A stretch of DNA of 64,000 nt from an uncultured Chloroflexia bacterium (GTDB lineage: Bacteria > Chloroflexota > Limnocylindria > Limnocylindrales > CSP1-4), in the NCBI GenBank assembly GCA_963713795.1, contig CAVQNC010000010.1, positions 103,966 through 167,965 of the forward strand, read 5' to 3'. Below are positions 4,568-56,359 of this stretch, one piece after another (within the stretch, counting starts at the first letter, position 1; each line of letters starts with the position of its first letter). The notes beneath the pieces were generated by a model. It had not been told where the DNA came from, did not search any database, and was given only the letters and a program-made list of their open reading frames with translations. The position numbers and the translations under genes are program-made.

Positions 4568-4688
4568 CCTGGACTCTGGTAGCCCCTCCCTCCGCGCAAC
4601 TCCGGGGGGAGGGGCTATTCTCCTTATGCCGTAGGGCACGTCCAGCTGCAGGGCACGCCGACAAAAGGCACGCCGACCGGGAGATCGT

Positions 4689-6595: not shown

Positions 6596-6598
6596 GCC

Positions 6599-28306: not shown

Positions 28307-29605
28307 ATGAGCGCAAGCACGAACCCGACCCCAGGGCCGCCTCGATCGGGAGAGGAACCCTCTGAGGCCGCGCCGCAGACGGTTCCTCCGACCGCCGCCG
28401 GTCCTACGCCCCCTCGCTCGCGCGGAGCGCCCAGCAACTCGCCGGCCGGGGTCGCGCCGACAGCCCCGCCGCCAGCCTCGCCCACCAGCGCGGACATCGC
28501 CCGCTATCGCGAGAACCTTCAGGGTGAGATCGACGCCATCGCCCTCTATTCATTGCTGCGGGAGAAGGAAGAGAGCCGGCCGGTCAAGGACTTCTATGCC
28601 CGCATGGTCCAGGTGGAGTCGATGCACGCGGCGGTCTGGCGGGACCGCCTCACTGCAGTGGGCGTCGACACGGCCCGGTTGAGCCCGGCCTGGCGGACCC
28701 GGGTCCTGATGTTCATCGCCCGCCACTTCGGGCCGTCCCTCGTGGTTCCGACGATCGCGGAGCACGAGGCCTCCGACGAGGCGATGTACGACGACCAGCC
28801 CGAGGCCCTGGCTAGGATGCCCGGCGACGAGCGATCCCACGCCCGGCTTTTCCGCGAACTGGCCGCCGGCCGGGGCGTTGAGGGCGGCGCCATCGCCCGC
28901 ATCGAGGGACGCCATCGCGGCAGCGGCGGGAACCAGCTCCGGGCGGCGGTTCTGGGCGCTAACGACGGCCTGGTGTCGAACCTGAGCATCACCATGGGCG
29001 TCGCCGGTGCCTCGAGCGGCGGCGGCGGTCATGCGGTTCTGATAGCCGGCCTGGCCGGCATGCTCGCCGGCGCCCTGTCGATGGCCATCGGGGAGTGGCT
29101 GTCGGTCCAGAGCGCCCGCGAGCTCTACGCCCATCAGGTCAAGGTCGAGCGTGAGGAGTTGCTCAGCGTCCCCGACGAGGAGGAAGAGGAGTTGACGCTC
29201 ATCTACCAGTCGAAGGGCCTCACGGCCGAACAGGCCCGCCTCATGGCGCAGTCGCTGATCGGCGGCGAGCTCGGGCGGGCGGTCGACACGCTCGCTCGAG
29301 AGGAACTCGGCATCGACCCCGACGAGCTCGGCGGGTCGGCCTGGGTCGCCGCGACAACCTCGTTCTGCCTCTTCGCCCTCGGGGCCGTCGTGCCGCTCTC
29401 GCCATTCTTCTTCGCCGCGGGGATGCCCGCGGTCGCGGCTTCGATCATCGTCAGCGCCGCGGCCCTGATGGTCGTCGGGGCGGCCATCACGGTTGTGACC
29501 GGATCCAGCGTGATCAAGACCGGGGGCCGGCAGGTCCTGCTCGGGCTCTTCGCGGCCGCGATCACCTTCGGCCTCGGGACCCTCGTCGGCCGGGCCGTCG
29601 GGTAA
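28307..29605 (+). CDS. mbfA: Erythrin-VIT1 fusion protein (MbfA-type membrane-bound ferritin-like iron exporter)
   Basis: N-terminal rubrerythrin-like domain with two ExxH motifs (VESMHAA, DERSHAR). C-terminal VIT1/CCC1 domain with GANDGLVSNLS and TM helices. Confidence 0.75.
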   Translation: MSASTNPTPGPPRSGEEPSEAAPQTVPPTAAGPTPPRSRGAPSNSPAGVAPTAPPPASPTSADIARYRENLQGEIDAIALYSLLREKEESRPVKDFYARMVQVESMHAAVWRDRLTAVGVDTARLSPAWRTRVLMFIARHFGPSLVVPTIAEHEASDEAMYDDQPEALARMPGDERSHARLFRELAAGRGVEGGAIARIEGRHRGSGGNQLRAAVLGANDGLVSNLSITMGVAGASSGGGGHAVLIAGLAGMLAGALSMAIGEWLSVQSARELYAHQVKVEREELLSVPDEEEEELTLIYQSKGLTAEQARLMAQSLIGGELGRAVDTLAREELGIDPDELGGSAWVAATTSFCLFALGAVVPLSPFFFAAGMPAVAASIIVSAAALMVVGAAITVVTGSSVIKTGGRQVLLGLFAAAITFGLGTLVGRAVG

Positions 29606-29659
29606 GGGCGTCGAGACTTCGGCTCGATCCGGCAGGCCCGCTGGCCGGCCAGTCAGGAC

Positions 29660-30127
29660 TCAGTCGCGGCGGGCGGACACGGCGGCATGCGGCGGGGAGG
29701 GCGAGGCCGGCTCGGGCGGGCCGGCCATGCGGTAGCCGGTGCCGTAGACACTCTCGATCAACGAGTACTCGCGGACCGGGGCGACTCGAGCGCGCAGGCT
29801 GCGGATCGTCACCTGGAGCAGGTGGATGTCGTCGCCGTACCCCGGACCCCAGACGGACAACAGCAGCTCGCGATGACCCACGACCCTGTCCGAGTGCTCG
29901 ACGAGGTAGCAGAGCAGCCGGAACTCGGTCGGCGTGAGGTGAACCTCCTCGCCCAGCACGCGGACGGATCTGCGGCCGGTGTCGATGTCCAGCGGGCCGA
30001 ACGAGAGGTGAGGCACCGGATCGACCCAAGGATCGGGACTCGGCGAGGAGAGTGAGGAGACGGAGACGGCGTAGTCGAGGGAGGAGCCGGGCCCGGGCGC
30101 CGGGCTCACGTAGCTGACCGCCCTCAT
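29660..30127 (-). CDS. Orphan OmpR/PhoB-type winged-helix DNA-binding protein (trans_reg_C domain only, no receiver)
   Basis: LTPTEFRLLCYLVEHSDRVVGHRELLLSVWG...VYGTGYRM is a complete wHTH effector domain. Start taken at the ATG following GAGAGAGGTG (M36 of the track ORF). N-terminal P/S-rich tail. Confidence 0.65.
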   Translation of the reverse strand: MRAVSYVSPAPGPGSSLDYAVSVSSLSSPSPDPWVDPVPHLSFGPLDIDTGRRSVRVLGEEVHLTPTEFRLLCYLVEHSDRVVGHRELLLSVWGPGYGDDIHLLQVTIRSLRARVAPVREYSLIESVYGTGYRMAGPPEPASPSPPHAAVSARRD

Positions 30128-30836
30128 AACACCTCTCTCGGGCGAGCGAGTCGTGCCTGCCGGCGCGGGCGCGGCATCTGCCGGCGGTACCGCAGGCACG
30201 TCCGGGCGGTTGTCGCTGCCCATAGGGATCATCTCGAGGCCGCGCCTGGCGAGCCACGAACTGATGAACTCAGCCAGGGCCCGGTCGTCGTTGGCCAGAA
30301 CGGTGCGTGCCCTGTGTCGTGGGCGGCGAAGCCGCTCGTCCGTGCGACCACCTCACCTTTCAGCCGAGGAGCCGGCTCGTTGACCTGCCTTGAATGGTGC
30401 TTGCCCCACCCCATTACGTCAACCCCGGAGTCGGCCGGCGGACCGCGCAGCCGAGACGTGGCTCTCCCTAGTCGAGCGGGAGTCACATCCGGCCGCGAGG
30501 CCGGCAGGGGCGCGCTTTCGCGGGGCGGCTGTGCCCCAAGTGTTTTGAGAATGATTTGAGATTTGCGGCGGGTTGTCGGGAATAGAGTTCGGTCACAAGC
30601 GCCCGGGCCCACGCACTGGTAGGAGAAGTGGGTCACCCCAGGAGAGGAGGTATGGTCGCGGTACCTGGTAGCGGCGTGCGCCTGGCAGGCCGCACTCGGG
30701 TACTCGCACGGGGACCGGCTTCGGCATAGCTGGGTTCGCGACGCCGAGATTTACCAAACCATCGAATTCCGAATCCCATCTGGCGGATCCGCTACCCCGG
30801 TGGATTTCGCCGATGGGGCGCCAGGGAGATTTGAGA

Positions 30837-31601
30837 ATGGTCGAGAAAATGGTTGCCGAGATCTTCGGCACGGCGATTCTGGTCCTTCTGGGCGACGGCG
30901 TTGTAGCGGGTGTCCTGCTCTCGAAGTCGAAGGCCCAGAACTCGGGCTGGATCGTCATAACCATGGCATGGGCATTCGCCGTCTTCATGGGCGTGTGCGT
31001 GGCCGGACCGCTCAGCGGCGCCCACCTTAACCCGGCCGTGACGATCGGCCTTGCCACCTACGGGTCGCTCCAGTCGGGCGCCGGCATCACCTGGGACCAG
31101 GTCCCGCCGTACATTGCCGGTGAGATGATCGGTGCCATGATCGGCGCGATCCTTGTGGTCATCCACTACTGGGATCACTTCAAGGCCACCGAGGACAAGG
31201 GCCTCAAGCTGGCGGTCTTCAGCACGGCCCCGAACATCCGCAACCTGCCGCTCAACCTGGTCTCGGAGATCATCGGCACCTTCGTGCTCGTCTTCGTGAT
31301 CCTCTGCTTCGGCCAGCCCGGTTCCAAGGCCCCGGCGACCATGGGCGCGCTGCCCGTCGCCCTGCTGGTCCTGGTCATCGGCCTCTCGCTCGGCGGTACG
31401 ACCGGATATGCGATCAACCCCGCCCGCGACCTCGGCCCGCGCATCATCCACGCCATCCTGCCAATTCCTGGCAAGGGCGGTTCGGACTGGGAGTACTCGT
31501 GGGTTCCCGTCGTCGGTCCGCTGATCGGCGGCGCAATCGCGGCCATCGTCTACTACGCGGCCTTCACCCAGTTCATCGTCCTCAAGATTCCGGTTTCGTA
31601 A
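30837..31601 (+). CDS. glpF: Glycerol uptake facilitator (MIP/aquaporin family)
   Basis: Two NPA boxes (HLNPAVTIG and AINPARDLGPR); six TM helices; ATG 8 nt after AGGGAG. Confidence 0.9.
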   Translation: MVEKMVAEIFGTAILVLLGDGVVAGVLLSKSKAQNSGWIVITMAWAFAVFMGVCVAGPLSGAHLNPAVTIGLATYGSLQSGAGITWDQVPPYIAGEMIGAMIGAILVVIHYWDHFKATEDKGLKLAVFSTAPNIRNLPLNLVSEIIGTFVLVFVILCFGQPGSKAPATMGALPVALLVLVIGLSLGGTTGYAINPARDLGPRIIHAILPIPGKGGSDWEYSWVPVVGPLIGGAIAAIVYYAAFTQFIVLKIPVS

Positions 31602-31716
31602 GCGGTCGTTTCAAGTTGAGCCGCCGGTTCGAGGCAACTCGGGCCGGCGGCTCGCCCTGCCGAACCGACCTGAACCGACCTGAACTGTCGGATCCAGGAG
31701 TCGCGGAGGAAGTCGA

Positions 31717-32715
31717 ATGAAGAAGCTCATCAACGCGCCGGACCGCGTCGTGGACGAGGCGCTGGCCGGCATGGCAGCGGCTCACCCGGATCTGATCCGG
31801 GTCGAGGAGCCAAACATCATCGTCCGAAAGGATGCCCCCAAGCGCGGCAAGGTCGGCATCATCTCCGGCGGCGGGTCGGGCCACGAACCCATGCACGGCG
31901 GCTTTGTCGGCATGGGCATGCTCGATGCCGCCTGCCCGGGCGCTGTGTTCACGTCACCGGTTCCGGATCAGATGCAGGCCGCCACCAGGGCGGTCAACGG
32001 CGGCGCCGGTGTGCTGCACATCGTCAAGAACTACACGGGCGATATCATGAACTTCGACCTCGCGGCTCAACTGACCGAGGCCGAAGGGATCCCGGTGAAG
32101 GCGGTCGTCATCGCCGACGACGTAGCCGTAAAGGACTCGCTCTACACCGCTGGCCGGCGCGGTGTCGGCGGGACGGTGCTCGCCGAGAAGATCGTCGGCG
32201 GCGCGGCCGAGGCCGGCGCCGATCTGGACAAGGTGACGGCCTTGTGCCAGAGGGTCCAGGACAATGTCCGTTCCATGGGCATGGCCCTGACCAGTTGCAC
32301 CGTCCCGGCGGCGGGCAAGCCCACCTTCGAGCTCGCCGACGACGAGATGGAGATCGGCATCGGCATTCACGGCGAGCCTGGCCGGACCAGGATGAAGCTC
32401 GCCCCAGCGGACGACATCGTCGAAATGCTGATGGTGCCGATCCTCGAAGACCTTCCGTTCAAGTCGGGTGACAAGGTGCTCGCCTTCGTCAACGGCATGG
32501 GCGGAACGCCGCTTATCGAGTTGTACGTCGTGTACAACGCGGTCAACAAGATCCTCAAGGGCCGTGGGATCACGATCGCACGGAACCTCGTCGGGAGTTA
32601 CATCACGTCCCTGGAGATGGCCGGCTGCTCTATCAGCTTGCTCAGGCTCGACGACGAGATGACCCGCTTCTGGGATGCCCCGGTCCATACGCCGGGTCTT
32701 CGCTGGGGCGTGTGA
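31717..32715 (+). CDS. dhaK: Dihydroxyacetone kinase subunit DhaK (copy 1)
   Basis: GGGSGHEP motif and DhaK fold; ATG after GGAGGAAG. Confidence 0.9.
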
Positions 32716-33365
32716 CGTCGATGGACCAAACCGGCCGGTTGTCGTTCGATGATGTCCGTGGCTGGATCCGGCGCTTCGCGGCGCAGATCGTCGCCAACAA
32801 GAAGTACCTGACCGAGCTCGACTCGGCCATCGGCGACGCCGACCACGGCATCAACATGGATCGCGGCTTCCAGGCTGCGATTCCGAAGCTAGATGCCCTT
32901 ACGGGCGAGGATCCCGGCGCAGCCTGCAAGCTCGTCGGGTCGACGCTCATCTCCACGGTCGGCGGAGCCGGCGGGCCCCTCTACGGCTCGCTCTTCCTCC
33001 AGTTCGGCATCGCCTTGTCCGGCCACGACACGATCAGCCTGAACGAATGGCTGACCGGATTCGACCTGGGCATCGCTGCGATCCAGCGGCTTGGAAAGGC
33101 CGAGGCCGGCGACAAAACGATGCTCGATGCCCTCATGCCCGCCCGCGACGCCCTCAAACAGGCTCTCGCCGATGGAAAGAGTCCCAGAGAGGCTCTCCTC
33201 GGCGCGGCCTCGGCGGCCGAGGCGGGGATGATAGGCACCATCCCGATCGTGGCCCGCAGGGGCCGGGCGAGCTACCTGGGAGAGCGCAGCGCGGGCCATC
33301 AGGACCCGGGCGCGACCTCCTCGTACATGCTCGTCAAAGCCGCAGCGGACGAATGGGCGGCCTAG
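32712..33365 (+). CDS. dhaL: Dihydroxyacetone kinase subunit DhaL (copy 1)
   Basis: DGDHGINM ADP-binding motif; 4-nt overlap with dhaK. Confidence 0.85.
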
Positions 33366-33375
33366 ATCCGCGGTA

Positions 33376-34905
33376 GTGGATTCCGGTTTATCGAAAGAGG
33401 TGACTAGATTGGCTCAGTATGTAGGCGCCCTGGACCAGGGGACTACAAGCACCCGCTTCATGATCTTCGATCACTCCGGCGGCGTCGTCGGGATCGATCA
33501 GAAGGAGCATGAGCAGATCTACCCGAAGCCGGGTTGGGTCGAGCACGATCCGCTGGAGATCTGGACGCGCAGCGTCGAGGTCATCCGCGGCGCCCTGGCC
33601 AAGGCCGGCATCAAGGCCTCCGACCTGGCGGCGGTCGGCATCACCAACCAGCGCGAGACCACGGTGGTCTGGGATCGCAAGACGGGCAAGCCCGTCTACA
33701 ACGCGATCGTCTGGCAGGACACCCGGACCGACGTGATCATCAACGAGTTCGCCAAGGACGGCGGCCAGGATCGGCTCCGCGCCAAGGTCGGCCTGCCTCT
33801 GGCGACCTACTTCTCCGGCCCGAAGATCAAGTGGATCCTCGACAACGTCGCGGGTGCCCGTGCCAAGGCCGACGCCGGAGACCTCCTCTTCGGCAACATC
33901 GACACCTGGTGCATCTGGAACCTGACCGGCGGCGTCAGCGGCGGCGTGCACGTCACGGACGTGAGCAACGCCAGCCGCACGATGCTGATGAACCTCGAGA
34001 CCCTGGACTGGGATCCCGAGATTCTCAAGCTCATGGGCATCCCGCGGTCCATGCTGCCGGCCATCAAGGCCTCCAGCGAGGTCTACGGCAAGGGCGTCGG
34101 CGACCTCGCCGGCGTTCCGGTGGCCGGTGACCTGGGTGACCAGCAGGCGGCCCTCTTCGGCCAGACGTGCTTCTCCGCCGGCGAGGCGAAGAACACCTAC
34201 GGCACGGGCTGCTTCATGCTCCTGAACACGGGCACCAAGGCGGTCCCGTCCAAGAGCGGCCTGCTGACCACGCTCGGATACAAGATCGGCGACCAGCCCG
34301 CGGTCTACGCCCTTGAAGGCTCGATCGCGATCACCGGCGCCCTGGTCCAGTGGCTGCGCGACAACCTTGGCATGATCAAGACCTCGCCCGAGATCGAAGA
34401 GCTTGCCAAGACGGTCGACGACAATGGCGGCGTGTACTTCGTGCCGGCCTTCTCCGGCCTGTTCGCGCCGTACTGGAAGAGCGATGCGCGCGGCGTCATC
34501 GCCGGATTGACTCGCTACGTCAACAAGGGCCACATCGCCCGAGCAGTGCTCGAGGCGACGGCCTGGCAGACCCGCGAAGTGCTCGACGCGATGAACTCCG
34601 ACTCCGGCGTTCCGCTAACCGCACTCAAGGTCGACGGCGGCATGGTCTTCAACGACCTGCTCATGCAGTTCCAGGCCGACGTCCTGGGCGTGCCGGTCAT
34701 CCGGCCGAAGGTCGCAGAGACGACCGCCCTGGGCGCCGCCTACGCTGCCGGCCTCGCGGTCGGCTTCTGGAAGGCCGTCGAGGACCTGCGGGCGAACTGG
34801 CAGAAGGATCACGAGTGGAAGCCCAAGATGGATGCCACCACTCGTGAGAAGGACCTCAAGCTCTGGAAGAAGGCCGTGACCCGGACCTTCGACTGGGTCG
34901 AGTAG
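33376..34905 (+). CDS. glpK: Glycerol kinase
   Basis: [17 protein letters not shown]-terminal motif, FGGY-family length. The true start may be the TTG at about 33409 (LAQYVGAL). Confidence 0.9.
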
Positions 34906-34917
34906 GGTCTCCACCAA

Positions 34918-34946
34918 TCCGGCGGCCGGCTTGCCCGGCCGCCGGA
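34918..34946 (+). terminator. Perfect 12-bp stem hairpin (TCCGGCGGCCGG-cttgc-CCGGCCGCCGGA) between glpK and the glpA-like gene
   Basis: Read directly from the sequence. No U-tract; may act as a terminator/attenuator or RNA processing site. Confidence 0.4.
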
Positions 34947-34979
34947 TAACAATGTTCGAACATCGCATCTGGCAGAACA

Positions 34980-36167
34980 ATGGATAGACAGTCAGGCGCA
35001 CCAAGGGTCGTCATCATCGGCGGCGGTGGCACGGGGGGAGCCCTCGCCCACGATCTGACTCTGCGCGGGGTCCGCGTGACCCTCGTCGAGCGCGGCGAAA
35101 TCACTTCGGGGACGACGGGCCGGCACCACGGCCTGCTCCACTGCGGCGCCCGGTACGCGGTCAAGGACCGCGAGTCCGCCGTTGAGTGCATTGAAGAGAA
35201 CACCATCCTGCGGAGGATCGCGCCGGGCTCGTTCGAGCTCAACGACGGGCTCTTCGTCGCGGTCACCGATGCCGAGGCGGATTACGAGAAGGTCTTCTTC
35301 GAGTCGTGCCAGGCCGCCGAGATTCCCGTCAGGAGAGTGGACCGGGCCGGGGCGCTGCGCCTCGAGCCCAGGCTGAACCCGGAGCTCCGGTGCGCCGTCC
35401 AGGTCCCCGACGGCACCATGGACGCGATGCGCATGCCGCTCCGGTTCTTCGCCACCGCCAAGCGCAACGGCGCCGATATCCGGCCGTTCAGCGAGGTCGT
35501 CGGGCTGACCATGACGGACGCGGCGTCGCCGCGCGCGGTCACCGGGGTGGCCGTGAAGGACCTCACGTCCGGCCGCACGTACGAGATCGGCGCGGACCTG
35601 GTGGTCAACGCGGGCGGGCCGTGGGCGGGCAAGGTGGCCGGAATGGCCGGTGTGGACGTGCCGATCCAGCCCTCGCCGGGGATCCTGGTCGCGGTCCGCG
35701 GCCGCTACTGCAACATGGTCGTCAACCGGCTCCACGCCTCCGGCGACGGCGACATCGTGGTGCCCCAGCGCGAGCTCTCAGTGATCGGAACGAGCTCGTG
35801 GGTCACCGACGATCCGGACCACCTGACCGTCCCATCCGACCACGTGGAGATGATGTTCCGCGAGGGATCGATGATGATCCCGTCGATCCGCACGGCCGAG
35901 ATTCGGGCGACCTGGTCCGCCGCCCGGCCGCTCATCGGCGAGCGCGGCGCCTCCACCGGCCGCGAGCTTTCGCGCACTTTCAAATGCTTCGACCACGCGG
36001 CCGACGACGGCGTCGAGGGCTTCGTGACCATCTCGGGAGGCAAGGCGACGACGCTGCGGGCGATGGCGGAGGCGACGGCCAACGTCGTGTGCCGCAAGCT
36101 CGGCGTCGACCGGCCGTGCATGACCCGCGAGGTCGTGCTGCTGCCCCACACGGAGTACTACGCATGA
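34980..36167 (+). CDS. glpA: Glycerol-3-phosphate dehydrogenase flavoprotein, GlpA-type but truncated (about 395 aa, lacks the C-terminal BFD-like domain)
   Basis: N-terminus VVIIGGGGTGGALAHDLTLRGVRVTLVERGEITSGTTGRHHGLLHCGARYAVKDRESAVECIEEN is collinear with the E. coli GlpA N-terminus as recalled. Confidence 0.8.
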   Translation: MDRQSGAPRVVIIGGGGTGGALAHDLTLRGVRVTLVERGEITSGTTGRHHGLLHCGARYAVKDRESAVECIEENTILRRIAPGSFELNDGLFVAVTDAEADYEKVFFESCQAAEIPVRRVDRAGALRLEPRLNPELRCAVQVPDGTMDAMRMPLRFFATAKRNGADIRPFSEVVGLTMTDAASPRAVTGVAVKDLTSGRTYEIGADLVVNAGGPWAGKVAGMAGVDVPIQPSPGILVAVRGRYCNMVVNRLHASGDGDIVVPQRELSVIGTSSWVTDDPDHLTVPSDHVEMMFREGSMMIPSIRTAEIRATWSAARPLIGERGASTGRELSRTFKCFDHAADDGVEGFVTISGGKATTLRAMAEATANVVCRKLGVDRPCMTREVVLLPHTEYYA

Positions 36168-36955
36168 GCGCCCAGGAGTCTCCGGTGACCGAAGGGGCTC
36201 AGGCCCCCGTCGATACCCACGCCACCTCGGGAACCGGCCGCCACGTCCGCTTCCGCGTCTCCCGTTTCAAGCAGGGCGACCAGCAGCCGCACCTCCAGGA
36301 CTACGACGTGGAGATTGCGCCGGCGACCACGGTCCTGGACGCCCTGACGGCGATCCGCCGCGACCAGGACCCGACGCTGCTCCTGCGCCATTCCTGCTTC
36401 CACGCGTCCTGCGGCACCTGCGGCATGCGCGTCAACGACAAGGAAGAGCTGGCCTGCGTCACGGCCGTCAGCGACCTCGACTGCGACACGGTCAAGGTGG
36501 AGCCGATCGCGAACCAGCGACTCGTTTCGGACCTGGTCACGGACATGGTCGACTTCTACGATCGGTTCCGGGCGATCGGCCGGCCGCTCATCCGCCAGAG
36601 TGAGGTCTACCCGGACTCGGAGGTCGCGCCGGGAGTCGAGGAGCACCGCCGCTACGAGAGCTGCATCGAATGCGGGCTCTGCCTGTCGGCCTGCCCGATC
36701 GTAGCCAGCGACGGCCGCTACCTCGGCCCGGCGGCGCTCGCGGCGGCCCAGCGTACCGTCGCCGAGCCGCGCGGTGGCGACAGCTTCTCCGTCCTGCGCC
36801 TGACCGACGACGCCCAGGCGGCCTGGCGCTGCCACCTGTCGTTCGAGTGCTCGGAGGCCTGCCCGTCCAACGTGGATCCGGCCGGCGCCATCATGTTCAT
36901 CCGCCGCAAGCTGGCAGGCCAGCGCGTCAACTCGATCTTCGGGAGGCGGTCATGA
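36164..36955 (+). CDS. Succinate dehydrogenase/fumarate reductase-type iron-sulfur subunit (SdhB-like: 2Fe-2S plus two 4Fe-4S-type motifs)
   Basis: ATGA overlap with the glpA stop. CFHASCGTCGMRVN...C plant-ferredoxin motif; CIECGLCLSACP; CHLSFECSEACP. The 5' 286 codons of track ORF 35306..36955 are a frame artefact. Confidence 0.75.
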   Translation: MSAQESPVTEGAQAPVDTHATSGTGRHVRFRVSRFKQGDQQPHLQDYDVEIAPATTVLDALTAIRRDQDPTLLLRHSCFHASCGTCGMRVNDKEELACVTAVSDLDCDTVKVEPIANQRLVSDLVTDMVDFYDRFRAIGRPLIRQSEVYPDSEVAPGVEEHRRYESCIECGLCLSACPIVASDGRYLGPAALAAAQRTVAEPRGGDSFSVLRLTDDAQAAWRCHLSFECSEACPSNVDPAGAIMFIRRKLAGQRVNSIFGRRS

Positions 36956-37353
36956 CCGTAAGGGAAGATAGGGCAAGCCCCCGGCGCCGCGGCGTCTACG
37001 GCTGGGTCGACCCGCGGGGTCGCCGGCTGGGTCACTGGGCCTTCATCCTCAACCGCCTGACCGGTCTGGGCATCCTTCTGTACCTGGGCCTGCATCTGGT
37101 CGTGCTGTCGATGCTGGCCACCGGCCCGAATGCCTGGGACAACTTCGTCTCCCTCGCCCTGACGCCCGTCTTCCTGTCCCTGGACGTGATCCTGATCTTC
37201 GGCCTGCTGCTCCACGGGCTCAACGGCATCCGCGTGACGCTTGTCGGCTTCGGCCTGGTGGTCGATCGCCAGAAGGCCCTCTTCGTGTCGCTGATGGTGA
37301 TAGGAGCCATCATCCTGGTCGTGGCGTCGCTCCACATTTTCGAGGTGGGGTAA
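36952..37353 (+). CDS. SdhC-like membrane anchor/cytochrome b subunit
   Basis: ATGA overlap with the FeS gene; 133 aa, three TM helices with His residues (HWAF, LHLV, LLHGLNG). Confidence 0.65.
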   Translation: MTVREDRASPRRRGVYGWVDPRGRRLGHWAFILNRLTGLGILLYLGLHLVVLSMLATGPNAWDNFVSLALTPVFLSLDVILIFGLLLHGLNGIRVTLVGFGLVVDRQKALFVSLMVIGAIILVVASLHIFEVG

Positions 37354-37356
37354 GCG

Positions 37357-37791
37357 ATGTCTGAGCCAATCTCCGGCCACTCCAAAGCGACCGATCAGCC
37401 GGTCGATCACGATGTCGAGCGCTCGACCTGGACGCCTTCGAACGAGTCCGGGAAGCCGGCCTGGGGCTGGATCCTGCAGGCGGTCACCGGCGTGCTGGTG
37501 CTGTTCCTTCTGACCTTCCACATGATCGCCAACCATTTCATGGTGACCAAGGGCCTGCGCGACGCCGCCTCCGTGGCCCAGTGGTTCTCGAACCCGCTCG
37601 TCGTCGTCCTGGAGGTAACCTTTCTGGTGATGGTGACGTGGCACGGGCTGCTCGGCCTGCGCGCGATCATCTTCGACTTCGGCTTCAGCCCGAAGACGGA
37701 GCGCCGGATTACCTGGACCCTGACAGTGGTTGGCACAGTGGCGGTCGTCTATGGAATCTGGCTTACGTCGGTGATCGTCTCCCGGGGTTGA
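37357..37791 (+). CDS. SdhD-like hydrophobic membrane anchor subunit
   Basis: 144 aa, three TM helices (FHMIANHFMV, WHGLLGLRAI); follows the SdhC-like gene after 3 nt. Confidence 0.6.
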   Translation: MSEPISGHSKATDQPVDHDVERSTWTPSNESGKPAWGWILQAVTGVLVLFLLTFHMIANHFMVTKGLRDAASVAQWFSNPLVVVLEVTFLVMVTWHGLLGLRAIIFDFGFSPKTERRITWTLTVVGTVAVVYGIWLTSVIVSRG

Positions 37792-37812
37792 TCCTGCGAC
37801 TGGAGGCGTGGC

Positions 37813-40425
37813 GTGGCGGATGCGACCGGGCCGCTGGTAGGGATAGTCGTCGTCTCACACTCGGCGCGGATCGCCGAGGGTGTCGTCGAGCTGGCCCGGC
37901 AGATGGCCGGCCCGGACGTGCCTCTCGTTGCCGCCGGAGGCATGGCCGACGGCGCCATCGGAACCGATGCGGTTCTCATAGCGGAGGCGATCGCCCGGGC
38001 CGACGTTGGTGGCGGCGTGCTCGTTCTGGCCGACCTCGGCAGCGCGGTCCTGAGCACGAAACTGGCCCTGGACATGGCCGATCCGGAACTGGCCGCCCGG
38101 ACTCGCCTGAGCAACGGGCCGATCGTCGAAGGCGCGGTCGTGGCCGCGGTCCGAGCCAGGGGCGGCGCGACGGTCGACGAGGTTCTGCGCGAGGCGGAGG
38201 CCGCTGCCTCGGTGGTCAAGGACTCTGGTGACGAGGCTGCCGACGTCTTCGGTGCGGCCGGCCCCGGGCCGAGCCTGGCGGCCGGAGCGGCCGGGACGAG
38301 CGGCGGCGTGGCCGGTGCGGCCGGCGGGCCCAGCACGTTCACCCTCGAGGTCTCGAACCCGTCCGGCCTGCATGCCCGGCCGGCGGCGGAGTTCGTCGCC
38401 ACCGCCGCACGGTTCCGATCCGCGATCCGGCTCGAGAACCTGACTCGGGGCACGTCACCGGCCGACGCCAGGAGCCCGACGGCGATCATGTCGAGCGGAG
38501 TGGCCCAGGGCCACGCGATCCGCGTGTCGGCTGAGGGAGAGGACCAGGACGCGGCGCTTGCGGCGCTCCTGTCGCTCGCCGCTGGCGGCTTCGGCGAGGG
38601 CAAGGCGGCCGCCACCCGACCCGGGCCGGCCGCGGCTCGGCCGGCGGCCGAATTGCCGCTCCTGGCGCCCCGCCCGCGCCTGGCCGGGGCCATCGCCGGG
38701 ACGCCGGGCGCAGCCGGCGTGGCCGTCGGGCCGGTGTGGGTCTACGCCTCGCGGCCGCCGTCCGATGCCGCCGCTCACGGGGCCGGGGCGACTTACGATC
38801 CCGGCGCGGCAGTCCGTTCGGCGGCCGCCGAAGCCACCGCCCAGCTCAACGCGCTGGCGGCACGGGTGCGGCGGCATGGTCGAGACGAGGACGCCGGCAT
38901 CTTCCGAGCCCAGGCCATGATTGCCTCCGACCCGCAGCTCCTGGACGATGCCGTGGCGCGGGCGGCCGCGGGCGAGGACCCGGGCAGGGCCGTGGAGTCG
39001 GCCGCGGCGATGGCCGCGGAACGCATGGAGGCCCTGCCGGACGCGCTCCTGGCGGCCCGTGGGGCCGACTTCCGCGACGTGGGGGCCAGGATCGCCCGGA
39101 TCGTTCGAGGTGAGTCGCTGACCCTGCCGGCCGTGCCTTCCATCGCGGTCGCCGAGGACCTGCCGCCCTCCGTCGCGGAGGAGCTGCCGGAAGATCTCCT
39201 GCTCGGAGTGGCGATCCAGGGCGGCTCGGCCACGGCGCACGTCGTAATCCTGTCCCGCGGCCGGGGGATCCCGGCCGTAGTGGCGGTGCCCGGACTCCTC
39301 GAAGCGGCGGCGAAGGCGTCGGCCATCGCCATCGACGGCGAGTCGGGCGAAGTGGTCCTCGATCCGGACGCGGCCGCGCTGGCCGAGCTGGCGGCTCGCG
39401 CCGAGGCCTTGGCCGAGCGCCGCCGCGCCGCGGCCGCGCTTCGCGGCGACAAGGGAGCCACTGCCGACGGGCAGCCCGTTGCGCTGCTGGCGAACATCGG
39501 CGGCCCTGATGATGCCGGCCGCGCCATCGAAGCCGGAGCCGAGGGCGTGGGCCTGTTTCGAACCGAGTTCCTGTTCATGAAGCGCCGGACGGCTCCGACC
39601 GAGGACGACCAGGTCGAGCCGTATCGGCGCGTCTTCGAAGCCTTCGGGCGCGATCGCCCGGTCGTCGTCCGCCTGGCGGACATCGGCGGCGACAAGGACC
39701 TGCCTTACCTGGGCTTGCCGCACGAGGAGAACCCGTTCCTCGGAGTCCGGGCGATCCGCCTGGCCGAGGGTTCGCGCGAGCTGCTCGCCGCCCAGCTGCG
39801 GGCGATCTGGCGGGCCGCCGGGCTGGCCGGCGTGGTGCCGCACGTCATGGCGCCGATGGTCTCCACGCTGGAGGACGCCCGTCTCCTGGTCGAGCTGCGC
39901 GACGAAGCCCGGGCGGTGGTGGCGGCCGGGGGCGCGCCCCTGCCCGAGCGCATGGTCACCGGAATCATGGTCGAGGTCCCGTCCGCGGCGATCCTGGCTC
40001 CGGAGCTCGCGCGGCTGGTCGATTTCTTCTCGATCGGCACGAACGACCTGACCCAGTACACGCTGGCGGCGGATCGCTCGAACCCGGCTCTGGCCCACTT
40101 CCAGGATGCCCTCCATCCCGCTGTTCTACGCCTCATCGCCGGCGTGGTCGCCGGGGCCGACGAGGCCGGCATCCCGGTCGCGGTCTGCGGGGAACTGGCC
40201 GGCGATCCGATCGGGGCCCTCGTGCTGGTCGGCCTGGGTGTCGACGAACTCTCCGCGGACGCCGGCTCGCTCGATGACGTGCGGGCGGCGCTCGCGGGCG
40301 TGACGCGCGCTCAGCTGGCCGATCTTGCGCAGGACGCCCTCAAGGCGGCCGATGCCGCGGCGGTCAGGGCCATGGCCCGCGAGCTCCTGCGGCCGCTCGC
40401 AGCGGGGCCCGGGCGCACGCCGTGA
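37813..40425 (+). CDS. dhaM: Multiphosphoryl transfer protein: DhaM-type EIIA(Man)-like domain, HPr domain and full Enzyme I (PEP-protein phosphotransferase)
   Basis: N-terminus VGIVVVSHSARIAEGVVELARQM matches the DhaM N-terminus. HPr GLHARPAAEFV. EI phospho-His region GGSATAHVVILSRGRGIPAVV and PEP-utilizing signature FFSIGTNDLTQYTLA. 870 aa. Confidence 0.85.
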   Translation: MADATGPLVGIVVVSHSARIAEGVVELARQMAGPDVPLVAAGGMADGAIGTDAVLIAEAIARADVGGGVLVLADLGSAVLSTKLALDMADPELAARTRLSNGPIVEGAVVAAVRARGGATVDEVLREAEAAASVVKDSGDEAADVFGAAGPGPSLAAGAAGTSGGVAGAAGGPSTFTLEVSNPSGLHARPAAEFVATAARFRSAIRLENLTRGTSPADARSPTAIMSSGVAQGHAIRVSAEGEDQDAALAALLSLAAGGFGEGKAAATRPGPAAARPAAELPLLAPRPRLAGAIAGTPGAAGVAVGPVWVYASRPPSDAAAHGAGATYDPGAAVRSAAAEATAQLNALAARVRRHGRDEDAGIFRAQAMIASDPQLLDDAVARAAAGEDPGRAVESAAAMAAERMEALPDALLAARGADFRDVGARIARIVRGESLTLPAVPSIAVAEDLPPSVAEELPEDLLLGVAIQGGSATAHVVILSRGRGIPAVVAVPGLLEAAAKASAIAIDGESGEVVLDPDAAALAELAARAEALAERRRAAAALRGDKGATADGQPVALLANIGGPDDAGRAIEAGAEGVGLFRTEFLFMKRRTAPTEDDQVEPYRRVFEAFGRDRPVVVRLADIGGDKDLPYLGLPHEENPFLGVRAIRLAEGSRELLAAQLRAIWRAAGLAGVVPHVMAPMVSTLEDARLLVELRDEARAVVAAGGAPLPERMVTGIMVEVPSAAILAPELARLVDFFSIGTNDLTQYTLAADRSNPALAHFQDALHPAVLRLIAGVVAGADEAGIPVAVCGELAGDPIGALVLVGLGVDELSADAGSLDDVRAALAGVTRAQLADLAQDALKAADAAAVRAMARELLRPLAAGPGRTP

Positions 40426-41432
40426 GAATGGCGAGCCTGGGCAGGTCCGGCCTCCCCGTCAGCGAGATCGGGCTGGGCCTGGCCGCGATCGGCCGGCCGG
40501 GCTATATCAACCTCGGACGCGACCGCGACCTCGGCGCCGATCGCAGCGTCGAGGTCATGCGGAGCAGAGCCCACCACGTGCTCGACGCCGCCTACGCCGG
40601 CGGCGTGCGTTACTTCGACGCCGCGCGCTCGTACGGCCTGGCCGAGGACTTCCTGGCCTCGTGGCTGGACGCACGCGCCCTCGGGCCCGCCGACGTGACC
40701 GTGGGCTCCAAGTGGGGCTACCGCTACACGGCCGACTGGCAGGTCGGGGCGAGCGTCAACGAGATCAAGGACCACTCCGTCGCGAACCTGCGGCGCCAGG
40801 CGGCCGAGAGCCGCGGGCTGCTGGGAGACCGGCTGCGCCTCTACCAGATCCACTCCGCCACTCTCGAGAGCGGCGTGCTCGACGACGCCGAGGTGCTGGC
40901 CGAGCTGAGCTCGCTGGCCGGGGCCGGCCTGGCGGTCGGGCTGTCGGTGAGCGGTCCGCGGCAGTCGGACGTGATCCGTCGCGCGCTCGAGGTCCGGGTC
41001 GACGGCCGCCCGCTCTTTGCCTCCGTCCAGGCGACCTGGAACCTGCTCGAGCCGTCGGCCGGACCCGCGCTGGCCGAGGCCAGGGAGGCGGGCTGGGGAG
41101 TGATCGTCAAGGAAGCGCTGGCGAACGGCCGCCTGGCCACGCCGGCGGCGCCGGCGGCCCTCGCGGCGCCGGGTTCGCCGGGCCGGCCCGCTCCGCTCGA
41201 GAACGTGGCCGGGCGCCTCCGCTGCGCCGCCGACGCCGTGTCCATCGCCGCCGCGCTGGCTCAGCCGTGGTCCGACGTAGTCCTGTCGGGAGCGGTCAGC
41301 CCTGAACAGCTCACCAGCAACCTTGCCGCGGTCGACGTGCGGATCTCGCCCGACGACCTGGCCGAACTCGGGTCCATGGCCGAGCCGCCGGCATCGTACT
41401 GGGCGACGCGAGCCTCGCTGGCCTGGGCCTGA
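40422..41432 (+). CDS. Aldo/keto reductase
   Basis: 336 aa; AKR (alpha/beta)8 barrel features; ATGA overlap with the dhaM fusion gene. Confidence 0.7.
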   Translation: MRMASLGRSGLPVSEIGLGLAAIGRPGYINLGRDRDLGADRSVEVMRSRAHHVLDAAYAGGVRYFDAARSYGLAEDFLASWLDARALGPADVTVGSKWGYRYTADWQVGASVNEIKDHSVANLRRQAAESRGLLGDRLRLYQIHSATLESGVLDDAEVLAELSSLAGAGLAVGLSVSGPRQSDVIRRALEVRVDGRPLFASVQATWNLLEPSAGPALAEAREAGWGVIVKEALANGRLATPAAPAALAAPGSPGRPAPLENVAGRLRCAADAVSIAAALAQPWSDVVLSGAVSPEQLTSNLAAVDVRISPDDLAELGSMAEPPASYWATRASLAWA

Positions 41433-41459
41433 CTGCCCAGGGACTCCCGGCACGGAGAG

Positions 41460-41710
41460 GGTGAGGGCGGCCGCGCCGCCCGCCCGCGCGGCCCCGCGCC
41501 GCCCGCCCGCGCGGCCCCGCGCCGCCCGCGCGCCGAGTCGGCCGCCTGCGTCCTTCGCCGCCTGCCTGCACCCCGCGTCGCCCACCGCGAGCTGTGCAGC
41601 CGCCCGCGACCTGTGCCGCCCGCGCGCCGCCCAGCGTGTCGCGCCCGCCCCGAGCTGTCCCGCCCCGAGCTGTCCCGCTCGCGCCCGAGCTGTCCCGCCC
41701 GCCCTGAGCC
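41460..41710. repeat. GC-rich degenerate tandem repeats in an intergenic region (23-nt unit GCCGCCCGCCCGCGCGGCCCCGC x2 plus partial copy; 14-15-nt unit CCCGAGCTGTCCCGC x3)
   Basis: Read directly from the sequence between the AKR stop and the SorC-family regulator start. Confidence 0.6.
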
Positions 41711-41841
41711 GATTCCTCTTGGGGATCGACGACAACTCATGACCCGCACCGTGAATCAGCCGGCTCCGGCGGGACCCGCTCTGGTAACATTGGGCACACG
41801 CTCACCACTGAGCAAATGATCGGGCCGCCTGGGGTTGGCAG

Positions 41842-42906
41842 TTGGAAGAGAACGCCGGCCAGAGCCTGTACGAATTCCTGGCGCGCATCGCCCATCGTTA
41901 CTACGTCGACGATCGGACGCAGGAGGAGATCGCGCGCGAATTCGCTCTGTCGCGGGCGAAGGTCCAGCGGCTCCTCGTCCAGGCGCGCGAGGCGGGCGTG
42001 GTCGAGATCAGGATCCAGGCCCCGCCGTGGCTCCACCTGGAGCTCGAGGACGAGTTCGCCGCCGAGTTCCGTCTGACCGACGTGATCGTCAGCACGTCGC
42101 GGCCGGACCCGCAATCGCAGCGCGAGGCGGTGGCCCGGAGCGCGGCCCAGTACCTTGAGCGGCGCCTCGGCAAAGGAGCGATCGTGGCGGTGGGCCACGG
42201 GCGCGACACCGGCGAGGTGCCGCGTTTCTTCCGGCCGGGCCGCCGGCTCGATTGCACGTTCGTCAGCGCCATGGGCGGGTCGCCGCGGGTCGATGCCCCA
42301 ACCAACCCCAACGAGATCTGCCGCGCCCTGGCGCAACAGTGCGGCGGCCGGGCCGAGAGTCTCTACGCCCCGGCCTACGTCGAGAGCGAGGAGATGCGCG
42401 ATGGGCTGCTCCAGCAGGAGGCGATCTCGCACACCCTGCGGCTTGCCGCACAGGCGAGCGTCGCCCTCGTCGGCATTGGCGGCACGAACGAGAACTGCAC
42501 GATGGTCCGCAGCGGCTGTCTCTCCACCGACGAGATAGGCCGGCTCGTGGGCCAGGGGGCCGTCGGCGACGTGCTCGGGAACTACATGGATGTCGATGGT
42601 CGGTTGATCGCGGCGCCCCACCGGGACCGGCTGGTGGCCCTGTCCGTAGACGAGCTGCGCCGTATCGAGACCGTCGTCGCGGTCGTGAGCGAGGCCGAGA
42701 AGCCGCTCGCGATCCTCGGCGTCCTGCGAGCGGGAGTCATCGATGTCCTGATCGTCGACGAAGCCAACGCCAGGGCCGTGCTGGACCTGGTGCGCCGCGG
42801 CCGTGATTCGGGCGACCCGGCCGGCAGCGAAGAGGTTCCGGCGGGCAAGAAGGCGACAGCCCGGGCTGCCCGGGACAAAGGAGTGATCGGCTCGACGAAG
42901 GATTGA
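41842..42906 (+). CDS. SorC/DeoR-family sugar-binding transcriptional regulator
   Basis: TTG start. N-terminal HTH LYEFLARIAHRYYVDDRTQEEIAREFALSRAKVQRLL, then a sugar-phosphate-binding CggR/SorC-type domain. Confidence 0.75.
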   Translation: MEENAGQSLYEFLARIAHRYYVDDRTQEEIAREFALSRAKVQRLLVQAREAGVVEIRIQAPPWLHLELEDEFAAEFRLTDVIVSTSRPDPQSQREAVARSAAQYLERRLGKGAIVAVGHGRDTGEVPRFFRPGRRLDCTFVSAMGGSPRVDAPTNPNEICRALAQQCGGRAESLYAPAYVESEEMRDGLLQQEAISHTLRLAAQASVALVGIGGTNENCTMVRSGCLSTDEIGRLVGQGAVGDVLGNYMDVDGRLIAAPHRDRLVALSVDELRRIETVVAVVSEAEKPLAILGVLRAGVIDVLIVDEANARAVLDLVRRGRDSGDPAGSEEVPAGKKATARAARDKGVIGSTKD

Positions 42907-43016: not shown

Positions 43017-43871
43017 GTGCCGATCGTATCGACAAAAGAGATCCTCAACAGGGCATTTGCCGAACGCTACGGGGTCGCGGCGATCAACGTCATCAACGAC
43101 CTGACGATGGAGGCCGTCCTGGCCGCGGCGGAGGAACTGAAAGCCCCCGTCATCCTCCAGACCTCGGTCAAGCACGTGAAGATGACCGGGCTGGACGCCA
43201 TGTACGCGATGTGGGTGGAGTACACCAAGCACGTCTCCGTCCCGGTCGCCCTCCACCTGGACCATTGCCCGGAGCGCGACGTCATCAGCGCCTGCCTCGC
43301 GAAGGGCTGGAACTCGGTCCTCTTCGACGCCAGCAAGCTTTCGGTCGAGGAGAACAAGCGCCAGTGCGCCGAGGTCGTCGCCGAGGCCCGCCGCTACGGC
43401 GCCGACGTCGAGGGCGAGATCGAGGGCTTCAAGCGGACCGAGGAGATGACCGGCGACGAGGCCGAGCACGTCCAGAGCCTCGAGACCGTCATCGACTTCG
43501 TCCACGCCACCGGCGTCGACGTCTTCGCGCCGGCGATCGGCAACGCCCACGGCATGTACAAGACGACGCCGCACCTCGACAGCCAGCGGGTAACCGACAT
43601 CGTCGAGGCAACCGGGATTCCGGTGGCGCTCCACGGCGGCACCGGCATGACCCCGGAGCAGTTCAGCGACCTGATCTCCCGCGGTTGCGCCAAAGTCAAC
43701 ATCTCCACCGCGCTCAAGATCGCCTTCATGAAGTCGGGCTACGACTTCATGACCGAACACCCGGGCGACTACGACCCGCCCAAGATCTTCACCGCCCAGC
43801 GCGCCGCGGTGATGGAAATGGCCAAGTACCACATCCGGCTGTTCGGCAGCGAAGGCAAGGCCTGGAAATGA
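43017..43871 (+). CDS. Class II ketose-bisphosphate aldolase (FbaA/GatY/KbaY family)
   Basis: GTG after AAGGAGG. Collinear with E. coli GatY as recalled ([30 protein letters not shown]). Confidence 0.85.
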
Positions 43872-46347: not shown

Positions 46348-46368
46348 ATCTGTCCGATCCGCAGCGGG

Positions 46369-46409
46369 TGGCGGCCCGGCCCAGGTGGGCAGGGCCGCCA
46401 CTCTTTGTG
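46369..46409 (+). terminator. Rho-independent-like terminator: 10-bp perfect stem GTGGCGGCCC / GGGCCGCCAC followed by TCTTTGTG
   Basis: Read directly, 20 nt downstream of the dhaK2 stop. Confidence 0.55.
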
Positions 46410-56206: not shown

Positions 56207-56359
56207 TCGTCCGTTCCCTTTCCATGACTGGACCTGGTACCGCACGAAACAGTCGGTTGCCGCCGCTCCGCGTGAGTCGATGGCAATCGGCTCAACTCCG
56301 CCCCGCCAGATCATATCCAGGCTTGACCGCACGCGAACGCTCGGCCATCGTGAGACCCC

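Follow-up and report, generated by a model that had tools for sequence, protein, structure and literature searches.

On the forward strand of contig CAVQNC010000010.1 from an uncultured Chloroflexia bacterium (GCA_963713795.1; a Chloroflexota genome of the Limnocylindria type), a tightly packed set of genes for the use of glycerol and dihydroxyacetone (DHA) lies within the 64,000-nucleotide (nt) stretch that we analyzed, hereafter the window (G+C content, ~69%). The unusual feature of this locus is not its aldo-keto reductase (AKR) but a bacterial GlpA-SdhBCD hybrid dehydrogenase, in which a short flavoprotein of glycerol 3-phosphate (G3P) oxidation is followed by homologs of the Fe-S and membrane anchor subunits of complex II. 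As read from its genes, this hybrid extends a type known until now only as a prediction from a single archaeal lineage. Genes were identified by Pfam and NCBIfam profile scans, the former covering ~57 open reading frames (ORFs), and the same gene boundaries were found in independent gene calls on two metagenome contigs with an identical DAO-family protein. The genes of the locus are as follows, with PTS denoting the phosphotransferase system and TM transmembrane.

30813..31601, + strand: glpF, aquaglyceroporin of the MIP family (PF00230, 156 bits; TIGR00861, 183 bits against a cut-off of 171)
31717..32715, + strand: dhaK, DHA-binding subunit of a PTS-type dihydroxyacetone kinase (PF02733, 453 bits; TIGR02363, 494.5 against 406)
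32712..33365, + strand: dhaL, ADP-binding subunit, overlapping dhaK by 4 bp (PF02734, 175 bits; TIGR02365, 224 against 138)
33376..34905, + strand: glpK, glycerol kinase (NF000756, 782 bits against 498; TIGR01311, 747 against 590)
34980..36167, + strand: short GlpA, a 395-aa DAO-family protein (PF01266, 154 bits; TIGR03377, 431 bits)
36164..36955, + strand: SdhB-like protein (SdhB'), overlapping glpA by 4 bp (PF13085 and PF13183; TIGR00384, 191 bits against 88)
36952..37353, + strand: SdhC-like membrane anchor (SdhC'), three TM helices (PF01127; hydropathy)
37357..37791, + strand: SdhD-like membrane anchor (SdhD'), three TM helices (PF01127; hydropathy)
37813..40425, + strand: EIIA-Man(DhaM)~HPr~full Enzyme I (EI) fusion, 870 aa (PF03610, PF00381, PF05524, PF00391, PF02896; TIGR02364, 127.6 bits against 98; TIGR01417, 436 against 342)
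40422/40428..41432, + strand: AKR (PF00248, 74.5 bits against 24; start in the database call, ATG 40428)

An earlier note, made from these letters alone, had given the order as glpF, dhaK, dhaL, glpK, a hairpin, a glpA-like gene, sdhB/C/D-like genes, dhaM-HPr-EI, and an AKR, and every gene that it named was recovered on the + strand by Pfam and NCBIfam; glpF is present as claimed, with its start placed at 30813 rather than 30837. Its statement that two routes meet at one locus, the first through GlpK and a G3P dehydrogenase and the second through a PTS-type DhaKL with DhaM~HPr~EI, also stands (GlpK, DhaK, DhaL, and the DhaM domain pass their family cut-offs, and the upstream block recurs in 28 of 50 related loci). 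So does the reported lack of gldA and GlpR, as none of the ~57 window ORFs matched the Fe-ADH family (PF00465) or the DeoR/GlpR type in Pfam. That note passed over the significance of glpA with sdhBCD, the module downstream, the candidate regulators, and the promoter box.

The profile data robustly place the flavoprotein in the GlpA lineage, with 431 bits for TIGR03377 and 365 bits for PRK11101 against ~93 bits for the GlpD models; its best matches in the PDB are GlpD and GlpO. The TIGR03377 match spans model positions 2 to 380 of 530 in a protein of 395 residues. What is missing is the C-terminal BFD-like [2Fe-2S] domain: there is no Fer2_BFD match, and model positions 381 to 530 are unmatched. 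The remainder keeps the motifs GxGxxG, R316-P-L, and GGK355xTTxR, all of which are invariant in 76 sequences. Neither glpB nor glpC was found in the window by Pfam or NCBIfam, and GlpC models match the ferredoxin part of SdhB' only weakly (E 1e-6).

SdhB' carries motifs for [2Fe-2S], [4Fe-4S], and [3Fe-4S] clusters (Cx4Cx2Cx11C, Cx2Cx2Cx3CP, and Cx5Cx3CP), and all 11 of these cysteines are 99 to 100% conserved across 76 sequences. H48 (TM1), H88 (TM2), and R35 of SdhC' are 100% conserved, as are H55, H60, H96, and D107 of SdhD'; by hydropathy, the five invariant histidines of the two anchors all fall in predicted TM helices, TM1 and TM2. By analogy with known complex II anchors, at least four invariant TM histidines would fit an anchor with two hemes. 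The conserved residues R35 of SdhC', H224 of SdhB', and D107 of SdhD' stand at positions that we take to resemble the quinone site of Escherichia coli complex II.

GlpA and SdhB' are a single ORF of 678 to 709 aa, joined by a Pro/Ala-rich linker, in six Micrococcales assemblies (L053, L033, L035, L057, L032, and L050; L numbers designate related loci). These include the complete genome of Pengzhenrongella phosphoraccumulans (NZ_CP144210, L053:9983-12028) and two Cellulomonas isolates. Clustering of proteins at 90% identity gives at least 30 clusters with the fused form, whose cultured carriers belong to Cellulomonas, Pengzhenrongella, Isoptericola, and Actinotalea. An AlphaFold2 model of the natural fusion, built on a 64-row alignment, is confident for the GlpA and 2Fe-2S domains. 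From the 4-bp gene overlaps, the invariant pairing of the genes across loci, and the natural fusion, we infer that GlpA and SdhB'C'D' form one complex. Textbook potentials make the couple of G3P and dihydroxyacetone phosphate (DHAP) far more reducing than menaquinone, so that G3P oxidation with menaquinone would be exergonic. The best reading of these genes is a membrane-bound G3P:quinone oxidoreductase, probably with two hemes, on a complex II chassis.

The distribution of this module was followed by scanning the short GlpA against one genome per species, taking the best 80 loci, and establishing synteny by tblastn with ten window proteins. All of these 80 loci are bacterial. The nearest, 78 to 84% identical to the window protein, are Chloroflexota metagenome-assembled genomes (MAGs) labelled Candidatus Limnocylindrales or “uncultured Chloroflexia”; the remainder belong to Anaerolineae, Ardenticatenaceae/Promineifilum, and Actinomycetota, including cultured Cellulomonas, Actinotalea, and Pengzhenrongella. 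Wherever the sequence leaves room, sdhB' lies directly 3' of the short GlpA gene (75 of 75 loci) and is accompanied by sdhC' (70 of 70) and nearly always sdhD' (67 of 70). The gene glpK lies immediately 5' of the module in 47 of 65 loci, the whole glpF-dhaK-dhaL-glpK block does so in 28 of the 50 with enough upstream sequence, in two phyla, and an EI-containing gene follows within 6.5 kb downstream in 28 of 53. These counts identify what the earlier note called a supercluster as a conserved operon type in two phyla, and no accident of one genome. The closest Limnocylindrales relatives have a plain glpF-glpK-glpA-sdhBCD-glpP-glpP operon without dha genes, and the module thus sits in the classical position of a G3P dehydrogenase.

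The short form of GlpA also occurs in one Bacillota MAG. A cluster look-up named Chloroflexota and Bacillota only, and no archaeal names came from that look-up or from the representative search, which listed short GlpA forms without organism names. In some Limnocylindria (L020, L023, L034, L044, L069, and L077, at ~5540-5630), a second G3P dehydrogenase homolog, ~38% identical to the short GlpA and probably GlpD-like, lies 3' of glpK, with glpA-sdhBCD ~4 kb further on.

Downstream of the anchors, the 870-aa fusion retains all of its phosphorelay histidines, H16 (VSHS), H187 (GLHARP), and H476 (ATAHV). By its domains, the DhaM~HPr~EI protein is a phosphoenolpyruvate (PEP)-driven phosphoryl donor for DhaL-ADP and, because it includes a complete Enzyme I with the PEP-binding domain, would be independent of the general PTS. 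IIA-Man~HPr~EI fusions have been described as being invariably linked to DHA-kinase genes (PMC2405797). In L083, a close relative of the window locus, DhaM, HPr, and EI are three separate genes. The window fusion shares only 54% identity with its equivalent in L003, against 64 to 90% for the neighboring genes, and G+C content is ~0.75 over dhaM~HPr~EI and the AKR gene (38000-42000) against 0.65 to 0.68 for glpF through sdhD. The raised G+C, the low identity, and the separate genes in L083 together suggest a recent replacement or fusion of this segment.

The regulatory genes that accompany dhaKL differ between lineages. A bona fide DhaR (GAF-PAS-AAA+-HTH, the last a helix-turn-helix domain) lies directly 5' of glpF in the Anaerolineae/Promineifilum loci L010 and L028 (643 and 627 bits against a cut-off of 551); Pfam found no DhaR among the window ORFs. 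The Actinomycetota loci have instead a divergent extra DhaL paralog with an IclR regulator, and some Chloroflexia have further DhaL-domain proteins. Extra paralogs of this kind lie by the operon at L021:3410-5565 and L056:4665-5420, one of them extended by ~140 aa at the N terminus and one accompanied by an IclR-family regulator, and may be regulatory DhaL proteins. By analogy with the DhaR circuit of E. coli, this suggests that regulation could be part of the reason why dhaKL lies within the glp operon.

Two intercistronic hairpins lie within the gene block.

34917-34929/34935-34947, + strand: glpK/glpA hairpin, a 13-bp perfect stem with loop CTTGC and no U-tract, candidate conditional or partial terminator or mRNA stabilizer
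31618..31653, + strand: glpF/dhaK hairpin, 16-nt arms 88% complementary, folding to a 17-bp stem

The perfect hairpin previously reported between glpK and glpA is real, with a stem of 13 bp instead of the 12 bp given. Its minimum free energy is -35.6, whereas shuffled sequences average -22.8 (z = -4.24) and none of 200 folds as well. It occurs once in the window, against a chance expectation of 0 copies. A dispersed repeat of the repetitive extragenic palindromic (REP) type was ruled out, as the window holds a single copy. Gap folding covered most, not all, of the related loci and gave a hairpin between glpK and glpA in nearly all of those folded; the sequences differ, and T-runs follow some of them. 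Homologous hairpins occur in L003, L083, and L004 to L007 (Limnocylindrales) with compensatory changes from A:T to G:C (window versus L003), from G:C to A:T (L004 versus L007), and from G:C to C:G (L004 versus L006). These were read directly from the sequences, as a MAFFT alignment of the hairpins misplaced indels. The positional conservation and compensatory changes lend plausibility to the suggestion that the hairpin acts as a splitting, processing, or attenuation site. The position of the glpF/dhaK hairpin is shared by L013, L021, L027, L010, L015, L028, and L064. A consensus promoter and terminator scan gave no more sites than shuffled sequence and missed the glpK/glpA hairpin because it has no T-run; Rfam found one tRNA in the whole window and no known riboswitch or leader family.

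In Limnocylindrales relatives without dha genes (L004 to L007 and L085), two tandem genes of the GlpP family of G3P antiterminators (PF04309) lie directly 3' of sdhD. The pairs lie at 12914-14057 in L004, 12902-14046 in L005, 3228-4374 in L006, 12950-14078 in L007, and 9234-10392 in L085, and occupy the place that dhaM~HPr~EI has in the window. By analogy, their presence in close relatives suggests that the glpK/glpA hairpin could be a conditional terminator.

Upstream of glpF lie a conserved promoter-like box and a candidate regulator.

30544..30588, + strand: promoter-like element, a direct repeat TTTGAGA-ATGA-TTTGAGA (11-bp period, 30544-30561), a 21-nt spacer, and a -10-like TAGAGT (30583-30588)
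29660..30232, - strand: OmpR/PhoB-type winged-helix protein, candidate regulator, divergent from and upstream of glpF (Pfam Trans_reg_C, residues 94-169)

The box is unique in the window, where 0.04 matches are expected by chance, and recurs with identical spacing 5' of glpF in L004 (7026), L005 (7063), and L007 (7082). It lies ~225 nt upstream of glpF and, if it functions as a promoter, would give a leader of ~220 nt. The 11-bp repeat period suits binding of the OmpR/PhoB type. The winged-helix protein has NCBIfam matches in its C-terminal part only, to PhoB, MtrA, and KdpE, and no receiver domain was detected in it. Homologs with 59 to 63% identity in the DNA-binding domain lie 5' of glpF in L004, L005, and L007, where they stand 2 to 2.5 kb upstream in these relatives sharing the box; others occur in L013, L021, and L027. 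The listed ORF at 29562-30257 (-) was rejected for its Arg-rich nonsense translation, the Pfam-positive frame being 29660-30232 (-), and the ORF at 30229-30636 (-) is probably spurious, as it overlaps the conserved box and has no family match. RNAalifold on the glpF leader (four sequences) gave a weak result, -16 kcal/mol over 278 columns, with no convincing conserved fold. Within the putative leader, at 30641-30730, a strong Shine-Dalgarno-like run (AGGAGAGGAGG) precedes the ATG of a 25-codon ORF; relatives keep a purine-rich GGAAAGGAGGAG near the same place with no obvious ATG.

Contrary to the earlier note, the cluster continues past the AKR gene; a SorC-family regulator and a second DhaKL module follow on the same strand to 46347.

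41842..42906, + strand: SorC-family regulator, HTH and sugar-phosphate-binding domain (PF04198, 213 bits), 410 nt past the AKR gene
43017-43871, + strand: class II (cbbA-type) ketose-bisphosphate aldolase
43868-44641, + strand: HAD-IA phosphatase, hidden inside the longer listed ORF 43211-44641
44684-45355, + strand: DhaL2
45319-46347, + strand: DhaK2
46368..46401, + strand: terminator-like hairpin after dhaK2, 16-nt arms 94% complementary, followed by CTCTTTGTG (also in the terminator scan)

L083 shares the whole SorC-aldolase-HAD-dhaL2-dhaK2 layout and L003 at least part of it, and a SorC regulator also lies inside the cluster in L055. The aldolase-HAD-dhaL2-dhaK2 module is without a DhaM of its own, and for this reason DhaL2 and DhaK2 presumably share the fused phosphoryl donor. 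The 410 nt that separate the AKR gene from the SorC gene contain GC-rich tandem repeats, at 41471-41533 (23-nt unit x2.7, 97% match) and 41619-41709 (20-nt unit x4.8). Elsewhere in the window, an unrelated cluster for oligosaccharide/peptide uptake lies at the left end (274-8519), with a GH130 phosphorylase, a LacI regulator, and a five-gene SBP_bac_5-type ABC transporter; a 750-aa ORF at 55064-57316 (-) has an AsnA (aspartate-ammonia ligase) domain in residues 411 to 659 only, with a long unannotated N-terminal part or a mis-set start.

The AKR, its gene starting 2 nt after dhaM~EI or sharing 4 bp with it, is catalytically intact by sequence, if divergent: its tetrad D64, Y69, K95, and H142 is invariant in 25 homologs. 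It belongs to a very large, uncharacterized family (>8000 matches), no NCBIfam equivalog matches it, and its best match in the PDB (E 1e-8) is a protein of unknown function; its nearest solved relatives are all weak matches (E 1e-8 or worse) with no glycerol link. The gene holds the same position in 1 of the 80 loci (L003, 76% identity) and in L083 (77%), which was found separately and shares the layout; a 67%-identical homolog lies 3.5 kb from a glpK-glpA-sdhBCD cluster in L085, and homologs at 64 to 70% identity lie in unrelated contexts in L084 and L086. Elsewhere the slot is taken by a DJ-1/PfpI protein, an ApbA/PanE-type reductase, a small methyltransferase-like gene, or a SorC regulator. 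Such variable genes between sdhD and the EI gene occupy L010:11263-12472, L028:13090-13677, L055:12667-13494, and L027:13243-14316; the methyltransferase-like gene was seen in three loci, the DJ-1/PfpI deglycase-family gene in L010, and the ApbA/PanE-type reductase in L027. Because its position is kept only in the nearest relatives and other genes fill the slot elsewhere, we regard the AKR gene as a variable, lineage-specific accessory.

We read the region as a glycerol/DHA utilization locus of a conserved Chloroflexota/Actinomycetota operon type, with G3P oxidation by GlpA-SdhBCD and PEP-driven phosphorylation of DHA, and judge the probability of this reading from the genes at roughly three in four. 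Glycerol, and probably also DHA, would enter through GlpF, and GlpK would make G3P from glycerol with ATP. A four-subunit membrane complex would then oxidize G3P to DHAP: the truncated GlpA flavoprotein would be its head, electrons would pass through the 2Fe-2S, 4Fe-4S, and 3Fe-4S clusters of the SdhB-like subunit, and the SdhC/SdhD-like anchor, probably with two hemes, would reduce menaquinone, the SdhBCD module standing in for GlpB/GlpC. On the second branch, DhaK would trap DHA and DhaL-ATP would phosphorylate it, while a self-contained EI~HPr~DhaM relay would recharge DhaL-ADP from PEP and probably also serve the downstream DhaL2/DhaK2. The hairpins after glpF and glpK would divide the tightly coupled genes into three blocks and their most likely effect is to make expression levels differ, through partial or conditional termination or by stabilizing 3' ends. 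The AKR would be a lineage-specific accessory oxidoreductase outside the core pathway. We also think it somewhat more probable than not that GlpA-SdhB'C'D' represents a distinct and widespread bacterial class of G3P:menaquinone oxidoreductase, in which a DAAO-fold head replaces SdhA on a complex II Fe-S/di-heme chassis and in which DhaKL (with DhaR in some lineages) and the hairpin before glpA (with GlpP in others) gate the module by triose status.

Several observations weigh against this reading of the locus. The short GlpA, at 431 bits, falls below the curated GlpA cut-off of 552.8, as its C-terminal third is missing. The model of the natural fusion has a predicted template modeling score (pTM) of 0.59 and a per-residue confidence (pLDDT) below 50 in the C-terminal Fe-S domain, and leaves the docking interface undecided. 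The window encodes no enzyme that would form DHA. Between the glpK/glpA hairpin and the glpA ATG there are only 32 nt, in which no promoter or clear Shine-Dalgarno sequence is visible, so that glpA expression probably needs read-through. Finally, no glpP, DhaR, or IclR gene was found in the window, and the regulation of its locus can therefore only be guessed.

Were the sdhB/C/D-like genes part of a genuine succinate dehydrogenase or fumarate reductase, merely beside an unrelated FAD oxidoreductase, it would be expected that SdhB' passes the general dhsB subfamily cut-off (191 against 88 bits) and that SdhC' and SdhD' match Sdh_cyt, as they do. We nonetheless consider this explanation extremely improbable: SdhB' stays under every equivalog-level cut-off, neither the operon nor the window encodes an SdhA (FAD_binding_2 plus Succ_DH_flav_C), the pairing with short GlpA is invariant in all 75 loci, and GlpA and SdhB' are one polypeptide in Micrococcales. 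L050, moreover, encodes a canonical SdhA 6 kb from the fused module, together with a separate SdhB (24% identity) and anchor; this marks the GlpA-linked module as a paralog and not the succinate dehydrogenase of the cell. Expression of the proposed hybrid G3P dehydrogenase could be controlled at the glpK/glpA hairpin by a GlpP-type antiterminator, the hairpin acting as a G3P-responsive conditional terminator, as before Bacillus subtilis glpD, such that the respiratory module would be expressed only after GlpK makes G3P. PMC9604022, citing Holmberg & Rutberg (1992), describes the inverted repeat 5' of glpD as a conditional terminator relieved by G3P-bound GlpP. The homologous hairpins with compensatory changes in L004 to L007 share their operon with the tandem glpP genes, which L085 also has, and the 32-nt gap probably makes read-through from upstream necessary for glpA. 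Yet GlpP was found in the window, L003, and L083 neither by tblastn nor by profile hidden Markov model, the window hairpin has no U-tract, a similar hairpin follows glpF, and hairpins also occur in lineages that have regulators of the DhaR or IclR type instead; a generic intercistronic stabilizer or attenuator fits equally well, and we hold GlpP-type control to be possible but rather unlikely.

The earlier note had proposed the AKR as an NAD(P)-dependent glycerol dehydrogenase making DHA for DhaKL, with both glycerol routes running in parallel, and this proposal finds no support. The tight coupling of its start to the dhaM~EI stop, the invariant tetrad, its retained position in the two closest relatives, and the L085 homolog 3.5 kb from glpK-glpA-sdhBCD would all suit it, as would the different NAD(P) oxidoreductase (ApbA/PanE type) beside dhaM in L027. 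A eukaryotic precedent is the yeast AKR Gcy1, which oxidizes glycerol to DHA upstream of Dak. Only 1 of the 28 loci with glpF-dhaKL-glpK directly upstream has the AKR in position (L003), however, its homologs at 64 to 70% identity lie in unrelated contexts, no equivalog matches it, and none of its weak solved relatives is a glycerol dehydrogenase. E. coli dhaKLM is also without an adjacent gldA, and a missing dehydrogenase thus needs no explanation by the nearest gene. We consider a glycerol dehydrogenase quite unlikely, and carbonyl handling at least as likely as glycerol oxidation. An accessory that reduces methylglyoxal, DHA, or glyceraldehyde could limit triose toxicity or return aldolase-derived glyceraldehyde to glycerol for GlpK, and may belong as much to the downstream aldolase-HAD-dhaL2K2 module. 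AKRs generally favor NADPH-dependent carbonyl reduction; the slot in L010 holds a protein of the DJ-1/PfpI deglycase/glyoxalase family (TIGR01382, 154 bits against a cut-off of 139), and in both the window and L083 the AKR gene lies between the glycerol operon and the class II aldolase module. The match to the methylglyoxal reductase YdjG is weak, confined to the C-terminal part, and far under the cut-off (33.7 against 550 bits), and the family occurs in many unrelated contexts, such that we put this role forward tentatively, as a possibility short of even odds.

If the hybrid class is real, many annotations of “succinate dehydrogenase Fe-S” or “cytochrome b” proteins in Chloroflexota and Actinomycetota describe glycerol respiration rather than the tricarboxylic acid (TCA) cycle, and nature offers a clear case of a dehydrogenase head swap on complex II. 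If the complex works as we propose, complex II would be a modular electron-transfer chassis that can take a flavoprotein of a different fold, which bears on the evolution of respiratory dehydrogenases, and bacteria would have a fourth architecture of G3P oxidation beside GlpD, GlpO, and GlpABC. At present the NCBI label for the short or fused flavoprotein is only “FAD-dependent oxidoreductase,” and the only model that the standalone SdhB' passes is the generic iron-sulfur one for succinate dehydrogenase/fumarate reductase. Labels of this kind could lead metabolic reconstructions to miscount genes of the TCA cycle or complex II, and to miss glycerol respiration, in Chloroflexota abundant in soil and sludge. 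The cultured carriers of the fusion make the question directly testable.

Each part of the locus resembles a known system and departs from it. E. coli GlpABC shares with the window a catalytic subunit of the GlpA lineage and the delivery of electrons to the quinone pool through Fe-S proteins, which the window module would achieve differently: it is without the BFD-like 2Fe-2S domain, glpB, and glpC, and the place of a peripheral GlpC is taken by an SdhB-type protein with three clusters, accompanied by two integral membrane subunits. These partners recall complex II with a two-subunit di-heme anchor, both in the SdhB-type cysteine motifs and in the two anchors, which have three TM helices each and keep invariant TM1 and TM2 histidines. 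The head of complex II is SdhA, whereas that of the window module is a DAAO-fold G3P dehydrogenase without Succ_DH_flav_C, predicted to act on a substrate couple far more reducing than succinate/fumarate.

The DHA branch resembles E. coli DhaKLM with DhaR in its DhaK, DhaL, and DhaM domains above cut-offs, its phosphorelay histidine motifs, and the DhaR genes 5' in Anaerolineae relatives. The E. coli genes form a separate dha operon, whereas dhaKL in the window lies between glpF and glpK, with no DhaR in the window and with a phosphoryl donor whose Enzyme I part is complete, the PEP-binding domain included. In Haloferax volcanii, the genes for glycerol and DHA use are split between separate operons. 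Glycerol kinase, G3P dehydrogenase, DhaKLM, and a dedicated HPr and EI are nevertheless linked for triose metabolism in that archaeon (PMC3863723), a likeness in linked glycerol/DHA/PTS genes within an organism with little other PTS use; haloarchaea use the canonical GlpABC (PMC11962113), unlike the window. The B. subtilis glpP-glpFK-glpD regulon is similar in its stable inverted repeat right before the G3P dehydrogenase gene, and the nearest relatives of the plain type have GlpP-family genes in the operon. The window, by contrast, is without glpP, its hairpin lies between cistrons with no intervening promoter or U-tract, and its dehydrogenase is GlpA-SdhBCD and not GlpD.

The closest parallel to the module is archaeal. 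Schmerling et al. (2025, Commun Biol; PMC11962113) proposed GlpA-SdhBCD from synteny alone in Thermofilum pendens and Thermofilum-related archaea, and theirs is the only report in the literature searched that ties SdhBCD to a G3P dehydrogenase. As in the window, a GlpA-type gene is followed by sdh b, c, and d homologs next to a glycerol kinase gene, and membrane anchoring and electron transfer were proposed as their role. The same study states that bacterial glpA co-occurs consistently with glpB and glpC, a generalization that our loci correct; the bacterial distribution, the GlpA~SdhB' fusion, and the operon context are not described there. The T. pendens type is archaeal and uncharacterized, whereas that of the window, alike in gene families and order, is bacterial and widespread in Chloroflexota and Actinomycetota, embedded in a DhaKLM/PTS operon, and naturally fused in Micrococcales.

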